Origin: Yuukianura sp. NJ FZ-2021
Lineage: Eukaryota
Reading direction: 5' to 3'
DNA length: 64,000 nucleotides
Assembly (NCBI GenBank): GCA_046563655.1
Contig: CM102286.1
Coordinates: 5,022,001-5,086,000 of the forward strand
The position numbers and the translations under genes are program-made. The stretch's first letter is position 1; every line of letters starts with the position of its first letter. Below the pieces are notes generated by a model that saw only the letters and a program-made list of their open reading frames with translations, did not search any database and was not told the origin of the DNA. Below, in pieces: positions 26,574 through 28,110 of this stretch.

Positions 26574-28110
26574 ATGTAAGTCTCGAAGTCTCCCAACAGT
26601 CATGCTTGCGTTTGCGATTGTCTGATATACTACTCACTTAAGTCAACTAAACATTGCATTGCAACATTATTAAAAAAGTATTGCTATTTTTTAAATCCAC
26701 AGGATACTGGAAATATTCGTCGCCACGCTGGGCGTTTTCGTGGTAACTGTACTTATTTCCCGAAAGCGTACTAAAGAGGGTGAAATCCCTACAGTGCGTT
26801 GGTGTTTGCCTTATGTTGGACATGCTCTTTACTTTCAAAAAAATCCTGCTGGATTTCTGGACAAATGTCGCCAGGAGTATGGGGACTTCTTCCGTATGAA
26901 ACTGTTTCGAATGACCTTCATCATCGTCTGTGATAGAGCTGCAATGACCTCCTACACGAAACAGGATGACACTAAATTGTCGTTTCACGGTCTACTCAAG
27001 GACATTTACTTCGGTGTGGCGTTTTTGGATAGCAAAGAACCCATTGCTCTAGAAATACTACGGAAAGGAGTAACAATCAAAGTGAAAGATGCAACACCCA
27101 GCATAGCACTGGAAGCACAACGGCTGGTCAAGCGGATCAAGGAAACAAGTTTGAATTTGCCGCTGGACTACGACGCCCAATTTGAGCTTTTGGCCAGATA
27201 CGTAACGGCGACAAGTTCAAGAAGCTTTCTTAACTTGGAACTACAGGAGGAAACATTTCAAGCGTTTCGGAAATTTCATGCAATGTTAATTGATGCGATG
27301 AACCTTGGAACTTGTATACCAATCAATTGGGTTCATTTTTTCTATCATGCCAAACTGAGCAAACTGCGCAAGACAATTCGAGAAAGCGTAATCGAGAAGA
27401 TTGAAACGTATCAGAAGAATCCAACAATGAAAGATAGCTTTTTACTCCGAAGTGTTGTGGATGCAATTGACGAAGAAACTGAACAGAAGTACGATACGGA
27501 CCAAGTGGCAGGCATGTTACTAGCTGCCATGTTTGCAAGTACGATCAACAGCTCAACATGTATACAGAACGTTTTGATTGATCTGGCACAACATCCAGAA
27601 ATTTGTGACCACCTTCGTACGGAACTTACTGAATACATTCAGAATGACGACATGGATGCAATTTTAAGTTTCCCGCTCCTCACTGCTTGCGTCATGGAAT
27701 CTGCTCGCTTGAATCCAACCGTGTTTTCACTTGTACGGAAGGTTAATTCGGACATTAGTCTGGGAAAATATAATTTGAAGAAAGGTGAACTGATTGGAAT
27801 TGCTAATCACATGATGATGCAAGATGGAACCGTATTCAAAAAGCCGTTAGCTTACAACCCTAATCGTTTTCTTGGAGAGAATGCCGAATCATGGTCTCAG
27901 TATAACGTTCTGTCATGGTCGGCCGGTATGCATCTTTGTCCTGGAAAACAGTTTGCCATCAATGAAATCAAGATGGGACTGGCATACTTACTTTGTAATT
28001 TTAAATTTACTATATCACCCGAAAATGTTGTACCGAACATTTTAACGACGCACCAATTCTCTGACAGAAGGGTTCAAATGACATTTACCGAGGTGTCTCA
28101 CATCATGTAG
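26574..28110 (+). CDS. Cytochrome P450, membrane-anchored, CYP51/CYP7-like; resembles giant-virus P450s (candidate horizontal transfer)
   Basis: Exon 1 contributes AT (26574-26575). Intron 26576-26702 runs gtaagt...ccacag. Exon 2 (26703-28110) is in frame and gives MILEIFVATLGVFVVTVLISRKR (transmembrane anchor), LPYVGHAL, K-helix ESAR (ExxR), PNRF (PERF) and heme loop WSAGMHLCPGKQFA. No other introns. Confidence 0.92.

Follow-up and report, generated by a model that had tools for sequence, protein, structure and literature searches.

An intact, host-integrated and stand-alone member of a giant-virus-type, CYP51-related cytochrome P450 family in the genome of Yuukianura sp. NJ FZ-2021

How does a cellular genome come to hold a cytochrome P450 (P450) gene whose closest named relatives are proteins of giant viruses? 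The question is raised by a gene at positions 26574-28110 (+ strand) of a 64,000-nucleotide stretch of the Yuukianura sp. NJ FZ-2021 genome (GCA_046563655.1, contig CM102286.1, positions 5,022,001 to 5,086,000 of the forward strand; this whole stretch is hereafter called the window), which an original prediction had read as a horizontally acquired P450 resembling the Mimivirus L808 (CYP5253-type) enzymes. By our analysis the window gene is real, intact and integrated in the host genome, and adds a new stand-alone variant to a giant-virus-type, CYP51-related P450 family. On balance we favour the reading that this nuclear gene is functional and long resident, that it encodes a P450 anchored in the endoplasmic reticulum (ER), and that its family was exchanged between viruses and eukaryotes, in one direction or the other.

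The P450 is encoded by a stop-to-stop open frame of 471 codons (26695-28110, + strand), which lacks an in-frame ATG ahead of the membrane anchor. The start had been predicted at 26574, and an ATG does stand there, but a GTAAGT donor begins with its G (aataATGTAAGT), so the start codon would be split by an intron. The corresponding acceptor (tttaaatccacag) ends at 26702, and joining AT (26574-26575; aataAT/gtaagt, with the slash marking the splice junction) to the G at 26703 produces an ATG exactly in frame with the exon. Judged from donor, acceptor and this exact restoration of the frame, the gene probably consists of a tiny exon 1, of which the last two bases (26574-26575, + strand) are the first two bases of the start codon, a 127-nt phase-2 spliceosomal intron (26576-26702, + strand, GTAAGT...CAG) and a single coding exon 2 (26703-28110, + strand), which supplies the third base of the start codon, followed by 468 codons and a TAG stop (28108-28110). 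The predicted spliced product is complete at 469 residues and begins M-ILEIFVATLG, the methionine being followed by ILEIFVATLGVFVVTVLI and then by SRKRTK. The expectation of a complete P450 with an almost intron-free body was thus borne out by the 468-codon exon, with flanking genes that fall into several open reading frame (ORF) pieces.

The encoded protein has the profile, motifs and fold of the P450 superfamily. Pfam PF00067 (p450) matched residues 38-455 (E 3.9e-53, 181.3 bits vs a cut-off of 22.8) and was the only Pfam domain matched, while an NCBIfam search returned bacterial P450 models only, all below threshold. The K-helix ExxR motif reads ESAR (27697-27708, + strand), with E332 and R335 invariant in alignments A1-A3, the PERF-type motif reads YNPNRF (27853-27870, + strand), with P386 and R388 invariant, and the heme-binding loop reads WSAGMHLCPG (27916-27945, + strand; thiolate Cys codon 27937-27939), with H410, C412 and G414 invariant, and likewise P413 (A1, 18 sequences). 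In alignments, the oxygen-activation region of the I-helix, FASTINSS (27532-27555, + strand), shows Ile-Asn in place of the usual acid-Thr pair, and this Asn (N282) is nearly invariant across the family (A1). An AlphaFold2 (AF2) model scored a pLDDT of 86.8 and a pTM of 0.88, and Foldseek with this model gave at least 500 P450 matches in the Protein Data Bank, with CYP51 structures at the top (template modelling scores of 0.78-0.82). At the N-terminus a hydrophobic signal-anchor (ILEIFVATLGVFVVTVLI, 26704-26775, + strand; helix at residues 2-18 of the AF2 model) precedes the basic SRKRTK, which is the layout of a microsomal P450, and by analogy with class II P450 architecture the protein may be targeted to the ER.

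Membership of the animal CYP clans 2, 3, 4 and mitochondrial was not supported, as matches were partial and motifs absent: a regular-expression search found neither WxxxR nor [AG]GxxT in the window protein, as had been foreseen, and CYP3A4 and CYP4B1 matched the C-terminal half only (1e-17 to 1e-15). Matches to the CYP7/CYP8/CYP39 group were weak and confined to the C-terminal third (CYP8B1 1.4e-16, CYP7A1 4.8e-15); an Asn at the I-helix position is a trait of these sterol hydroxylases. The best sequence match among solved structures was a CYP51 (6q2c, E 3.4e-28, 102 bits).

A HMMER pass of the window protein over 1.84 billion representatives gave only 61 proteins at E <= 1e-30, 29 of them at least 590 aa in length, and the best was 40% identical. 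Names of relatives, taken from 29 look-ups and from those shown in the search listings, included proteins of Cotonvirus japonicus (YP_010841313.1, 704 aa, E 1.7e-68, 32% identity) and Borely moumouvirus (A0A6G6ABU9, 703 aa, 29% identity), a member from the fungus Calcarisporiella thermophila (514 aa, 33% identity) and a partial protein from the mite Dinothrombium tinctorium (RWR98904.1, 327 aa, 28% identity). A Protein Atlas search with the homologue P0020 returned generic P450 clusters only. The long forms bear a C-terminal domain resembling 2-oxoglutarate (2OG)-Fe(II)-oxygenases, for which PF13532 matches were precomputed for several, the Cotonvirus match (E 1.3e-5) being below the cut-off. 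The mimivirid fusions belong to the same family as the window protein by tree, and share with it the N-terminal membrane anchor, CYP51s as nearest structural neighbours, the blocks PxVxGxxPxxGH, FRxxxxVVCDR, MESARLN and HLCPGKxFA, and the I-helix Asn. In contrast to them, the window protein lacks the 2OG domain, is only 29-32% identical, has Ile where the viral proteins have the I-helix acid Glu (TIN vs SEN), and is encoded by a gene with an intron in a cellular genome. All the segments quoted in the original prediction as echoing Mimivirus are present, and they align with conserved Cotonvirus japonicus and Borely moumouvirus blocks; the likeness to a Mimivirus-type enzyme therefore stands in that the closest named relatives are mimivirid, but L808 itself was not among the named sequences, and we take the Cotonvirus and moumouvirus fusions to be orthologues of Mimivirus L808/CYP5253A1. 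P450 nomenclature applies a rule of 40% identity for one CYP family, by which the window protein would belong to another CYP family than the named viral proteins. The window gene is best described, from the sequence comparisons, as a stand-alone, clan-level member of the giant-virus P450 family, which stands next to the CYP51 clade among the proteins that could be named. The mite protein, the only named animal member seen, likewise has no 2OG domain, and was automatically named lanosterol 14-alpha demethylase.

Genomic contexts were obtained from an alignment-guided scan of metagenome contigs (33 loci) and from a scan of IMG/VR with one pattern (two loci); a metagenome scan with the single protein had given 32 pattern matches and no relatives. 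Most relatives with a visible context are on dense giant-virus-like contigs. Ten dense loci (>= 9 kb) have coding densities of 0.75-0.94, the flanks of the eight that were scanned hold FNIP, collagen and ankyrin repeats, intronless topoisomerase I and KilA-N, and L034 is from a giant-virus bin of 1.6 Mb that has six capsid matches to nucleocytoplasmic large DNA viruses (NCLDV), located on other contigs of the bin. On one of these dense giant-virus-like contigs, of 96 kb (L014), an ERG4/ERG24 gene (8460-9794, + strand), with a Delta14-sterol reductase as best solved match (E 8.4e-68), is located 86 bp upstream of the fusion gene (9881-12073, + strand). Genes for topoisomerase I, chitin synthase and a GH18 chitinase were also seen near this pair. 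A scan of 185,579 prokaryote genomes with one pattern (alignment A2) gave a single relative, L036. This is a fused P450-2OG gene (3-2030, + strand) with HxD, His and RxS intact, on a 2.1-kb contig in a metagenome-assembled genome labelled Oligoflexia, where it was probably mis-binned.

The low-density loci L001, L003, L004, L005 and L006 (prefix Ga0194135) and L002 and L021 (Ga0181531) have a GC content of 0.40-0.42 and a coding density of only 0.37-0.64. By appearance these contigs come from eukaryotes, and L021 at least seems to be from an animal, as it has a second P450 located 3 kb from the family member (family gene 3-1442, + strand; second gene 4530-6017, - strand) with a CYP3A4 match (E 2.5e-55), a type that belongs to animal clan 3. 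This CYP3-type gene has an apparent in-frame unspliced insert. L006, which also carries SDR and LITAF-like genes, encodes a fused P450 and 2OG-like protein (3566-5838, + strand, 698 codons), the C-terminal domain of which no longer has the HxD, distal His and RxS residues conserved in nearly all viral copies. The 2OG half thus seems to decay in a cellular setting, and its absence from the window gene fits this trend. The P450 of L004 (1108-2534, + strand) is split over overlapping frames (1108-1554 and 1428-2534), which could come from a frameshift or an error of assembly, or mark a pseudogene. No synteny with the window was found by tblastx of 11 eukaryote-like loci, as nothing outside the P450 scored >28 bits.

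Phylogenetic analysis was done with IQ-TREE (LG+C20+F+G4, posterior mean site frequencies) on 57 rows and 464 columns, consisting of 45 family rows and a 12-row outgroup including CYP51s; this tree leaves out 52 of the 109 available rows and hits covering <340 query residues, with the exception of L002, L004, P0013 and P0069. The 45-row family was separated from the outgroup with support of 99/96, and a FastTree analysis of all 109 domain sequences agreed in the main splits, with the family apart from the rest at 99. The window protein forms a clade with L001, L003 (identical to P0020), L002 and L004 (100/98), in which L001 and L003 are 40% identical to it and the contigs of the clade overall 40-45%. 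This clade is sister to the other 40 family rows (97/86), which include a 38-row core (100/98) with all named viruses, the fungus, Dinothrombium together with P0069 (100/100), and L006 together with L005. The mite relative is thus in a different clade from the window gene, inside the core, and the window gene is not nested among the viral sequences. Approximately unbiased (AU) tests did not reject a single eukaryote-resident clade: forcing seven eukaryote-like rows into one clade cost 19.9 log-likelihood units (p 0.283), and with Dinothrombium, P0069, P0066 and L021 added (11 rows) the difference was 0.83 (p 0.496).

The intron adds to this picture, since its position is common to four genes (the window gene, L003, L005 and L006) across two deep clades, while the viral copies are single ORFs. 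In L003 the donor region reads gatccaaaAT/GTAAGT (778-785), and with the acceptor ttcag/G (1177/1178) the product starts M-ILLIYVAAAA; in L005 gacgAT/GTAAGT (497-504) and aag/G (598/599) give M-WAVIWLLLAC. The split start codon, AT/GTAAGT...AG/G, is therefore identical in the window gene, L003 and L005. In L006 an ATG at 3566 is followed by 22 codons and 2 nt, a GTAAGT and an acceptor cctag/G (3749/3750), which gives a 116-nt intron that is also in phase 2 and lies directly before the membrane helix. The counterparts of the window intron are thus at 780-1177 in L003, 499-598 in L005 and 3634-3749 in L006, with L001 and L004 having a plain in-frame ATG. Because this position is shared, we regard it as the clearest indication that the copies resident in eukaryotes go back to a single cellular ancestor with an intron. 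Purifying selection acts on the closest relatives of the window gene, with ratios of nonsynonymous to synonymous substitution rates (dN/dS) of 0.085 (L001/L002) and 0.116 (L003/L002), at a dS near saturation.

The composition of the window gene is that of its surroundings. Its GC content at third codon positions (GC3) is 0.432, and its relative synonymous codon usage correlates with that of the pooled host ORFs at r 0.66, compared with 0.39-0.65 for host genes themselves, so that codon usage does not set it apart from the host. Old residence is suggested by the combination of non-nesting, the shared intron, host codon usage and purifying selection among the relatives. Since relatives are mostly on dense giant-virus-like contigs, some horizontal transfer linking giant viruses with a few eukaryotes (the mite, the fungus, the window genome and the animal-like contigs) is likely, and the event behind the window gene would be old, and either from virus to animal or from eukaryote to virus. 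The horizontal acquisition proposed earlier thus survives as a likely transfer involving giant-virus contexts, but not as a simple import from a virus, given the position of the gene outside the viral sequences, its shared intron and its host codon usage. A precedent among soil arthropods is the fungus gnat Bradysia coprophila, for which two papers citing Feyereisen et al. 2023 give 28 'alien' P450s, reported to come from springtails, mites and a fungus (PMC12051294, PMC11665903); these too are horizontally moved P450s integrated in an arthropod chromosome, and the passages on them do not mention a giant-virus-type family. Expanded gene families of the springtail Folsomia candida are listed in PMC5490193, and PMC10598087 makes only general statements on NCLDV oxygenases. 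In our literature search no animal protein was reported as belonging to the mimivirid P450 family; such a member may however be catalogued in the main P450 surveys, as the search did not cover these.

An intact, intron-bearing and host-adapted member in a cellular genome bears on where giant viruses obtained their P450s, enzymes described as lacking a known origin and function, and provides a cellular gene set for testing the direction of transfer between viruses and eukaryotes. An animal gene also offers a genetically tractable context for finding the substrate of the family, and if the host is an arthropod, it would represent a P450 lineage that falls beyond the clans canonical for arthropods, and a CYP51-like enzyme in a sterol auxotroph. 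In the mechanism we propose, the N-terminal helix would anchor the enzyme in the ER membrane, where the host NADPH-P450 reductase may supply electrons to the heme held via Cys412, and the protein would act as a monooxygenase in which Ile-Asn stands where the acid-Thr pair is usual in the I-helix. The substrate could be sterol-like or another polycyclic lipid, a tentative proposal in which we have less than even confidence, and which is made because of the CYP51-like fold and of the sterol reductase gene beside the fusion gene in one viral-like locus.

Several observations weigh against a functional, long-resident gene with this role and history. The absence of the I-helix acid, replaced by Ile, may point to unusual chemistry or to lower activity, the B' motif that contacts the substrate in CYP51 is deleted in the window protein, and the sterol hint comes from a single neighbourhood among the eight dense loci with scanned flanks. 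The tree was already known when both groups for the AU tests were chosen, and the bootstrap correlation of 0.981 had not fully settled. The independent support for the assembly is a word share of 0.37 in a second study. Finally, the family could be wide in animals, most relatives being unnamed singletons, which would favour vertical descent.

Such vertical descent, in which an ancient eukaryotic relative of CYP51 was lost in most lineages, and viruses took up a spliced copy and kept or built the 2OG fusion, is the alternative that fares best, although we consider it unlikely. It would account for the two deepest branches of the outgroup-rooted tree being eukaryote-like, namely the window clade and that of P0066 and L021, the latter with the CYP3-type P450 on its contig, and for the intron position common to two deep clades; the fungus and the mite are among the cellular holders. 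It also agrees with the statement, in a paper discussing Lamb et al. 2019, that no known host can be identified as the source of giant-virus P450s (PMC11814380). However, 61 representatives among 1.84 billion are few for an old animal family, which also contains no solved animal P450 (the best human match, CYP51, was at ~1e-25), the loss of HxD, distal His and RxS in L006 is explained at least equally well by decay after import, and neither the tree nor the AU tests settle the history. A related idea, to which we give a similarly low probability, is that the eukaryote-resident clade was the cellular source of the giant-virus P450s, with an intron-bearing P450-2OG gene captured in spliced form and the window gene later losing its 2OG domain.

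Far less probable still is a recent and direct capture of a mimivirus-type P450 by the window genome. That the closest named proteins are mimivirid and the coding body is a single exon would agree with such a capture, but the 29-32% identity to the viral proteins, among which the gene is not nested, and the intron common to relatives of 40% identity argue against it, as do the fully host-like codon usage and the absence of adjoining viral genes. Nor does the window gene have a 2OG domain, or the window a remnant of one, as tblastn with nine C-terminal domains gave a best E of 0.42.

We give hardly any credence to a true CYP51 (sterol 14-alpha-demethylase) that was retained or regained by the host. 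The original prediction had described the protein as CYP51/CYP7-like at its N-terminus and noted that arthropods lack CYP51, and a CYP51-like protein that is not a CYP51 is indeed what was found. The best solved matches by both sequence and fold are CYP51s, the N-terminal PxxxxxPxxGH region and the GxHxCxG heme loop are shared, and the Dinothrombium relative carries its automatic name in UniProt. However, the match to 6q2c is far below that of the true CYP51 P0135 (102 vs 442 bits, E 3.4e-28 vs 1.7e-131), identity to the four CYP51s aligned is 19-23%, and the gene lies outside the group that holds the CYP51s (99/96). The CYP51 signatures are the I-helix (Q/H)HT(S/T), seen in three of the four CYP51 rows, and the B' helix/B'-C loop motif Y..x..P.FG..V.[FY]D; the window protein reads A-S-T-I-N-S, with TIN for (Q/H)HT, and has a gap without PxFG at the B' position, as does the whole family. 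CYP51 membership was thus rejected by every test that was run (clade, I-helix and B' signature).

Contamination or misassembly, with the P450 segment foreign to the genome, can be set aside with equal assurance, for although a nearby DUF4185 gene with 70% identity to actinobacterial proteins might raise suspicion, the P450 gene has a GT-AG intron where viral and bacterial relatives have none, is flanked within 1-1.2 kb on both sides by animal-type genes that it equals in GC content and codon usage, and gave word shares of 0.61 and 0.37 in the sequencing runs of two studies.

Upstream of the P450, and head-to-head with it, is a FASTK/RAP-domain gene in several ORF pieces (22946-25618, - strand; Pfam RAP E 1e-6, FAST_2 E 0.0016), preceded by NAA35 in four ORF pieces (20437-22527). 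Downstream are a 431-codon ORF (29308-30603, + strand), which contains C2H2-like Cys/His pairs and matched no Pfam model, and PDCD2 in two ORF pieces (31880-33181). An endogenous giant-virus island was considered and rejected, as these neighbours are ordinary host genes. The window holds no second P450 copy of the family type and no Rfam match, and a repeat search around the P450 gene found no transposon-like ends. The sole hexamer resembling a poly(A) signal within 500 nt past the stop codon in a regular-expression scan is ATTAAA at 28372-28377 (+ strand), which is a weak lead. A 20-nt inverted pair with 90% complementarity brackets the coding exon, one arm being in the intron (26634-26653) and the other 290 nt beyond the stop codon (28400-28419); a rough estimate puts the chance expectation for this stretch at ~0.03 pairs of this kind.

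The DUF4185 gene, a single ORF (37249-38403, - strand, Pfam E 4.9e-67), is located 9 kb away from the P450, with PDCD2 on one side and a bHLH gene on the other. Its product shares ~70% identity with Actinomycetota proteins (Catelliglobosispora, Micromonospora and Kribbella), 81% with a Joint Genome Institute (JGI) contig and 58-65% with fungal proteins, and a relative from JGI bears the name D-arabinan endo-alpha-(1,5)-arabinofuranosidase. Past its first Met, the ORF encodes a hydrophobic N-terminus in the style of eukaryotes, its GC3 of 0.449 is host-like, and we consider the gene a second, independent candidate for horizontal acquisition, in this case from bacteria. A literature search found no paper joining DUF4185 with horizontal gene transfer. 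The bHLH gene is also a single ORF (44000-45181, + strand, Pfam HLH E 4.3e-18) and has long Ser/Pro-rich tails, and a simple-repeat tract at 34715-34850 (+ strand) reads (TDGR/TDGQ)n in one frame.

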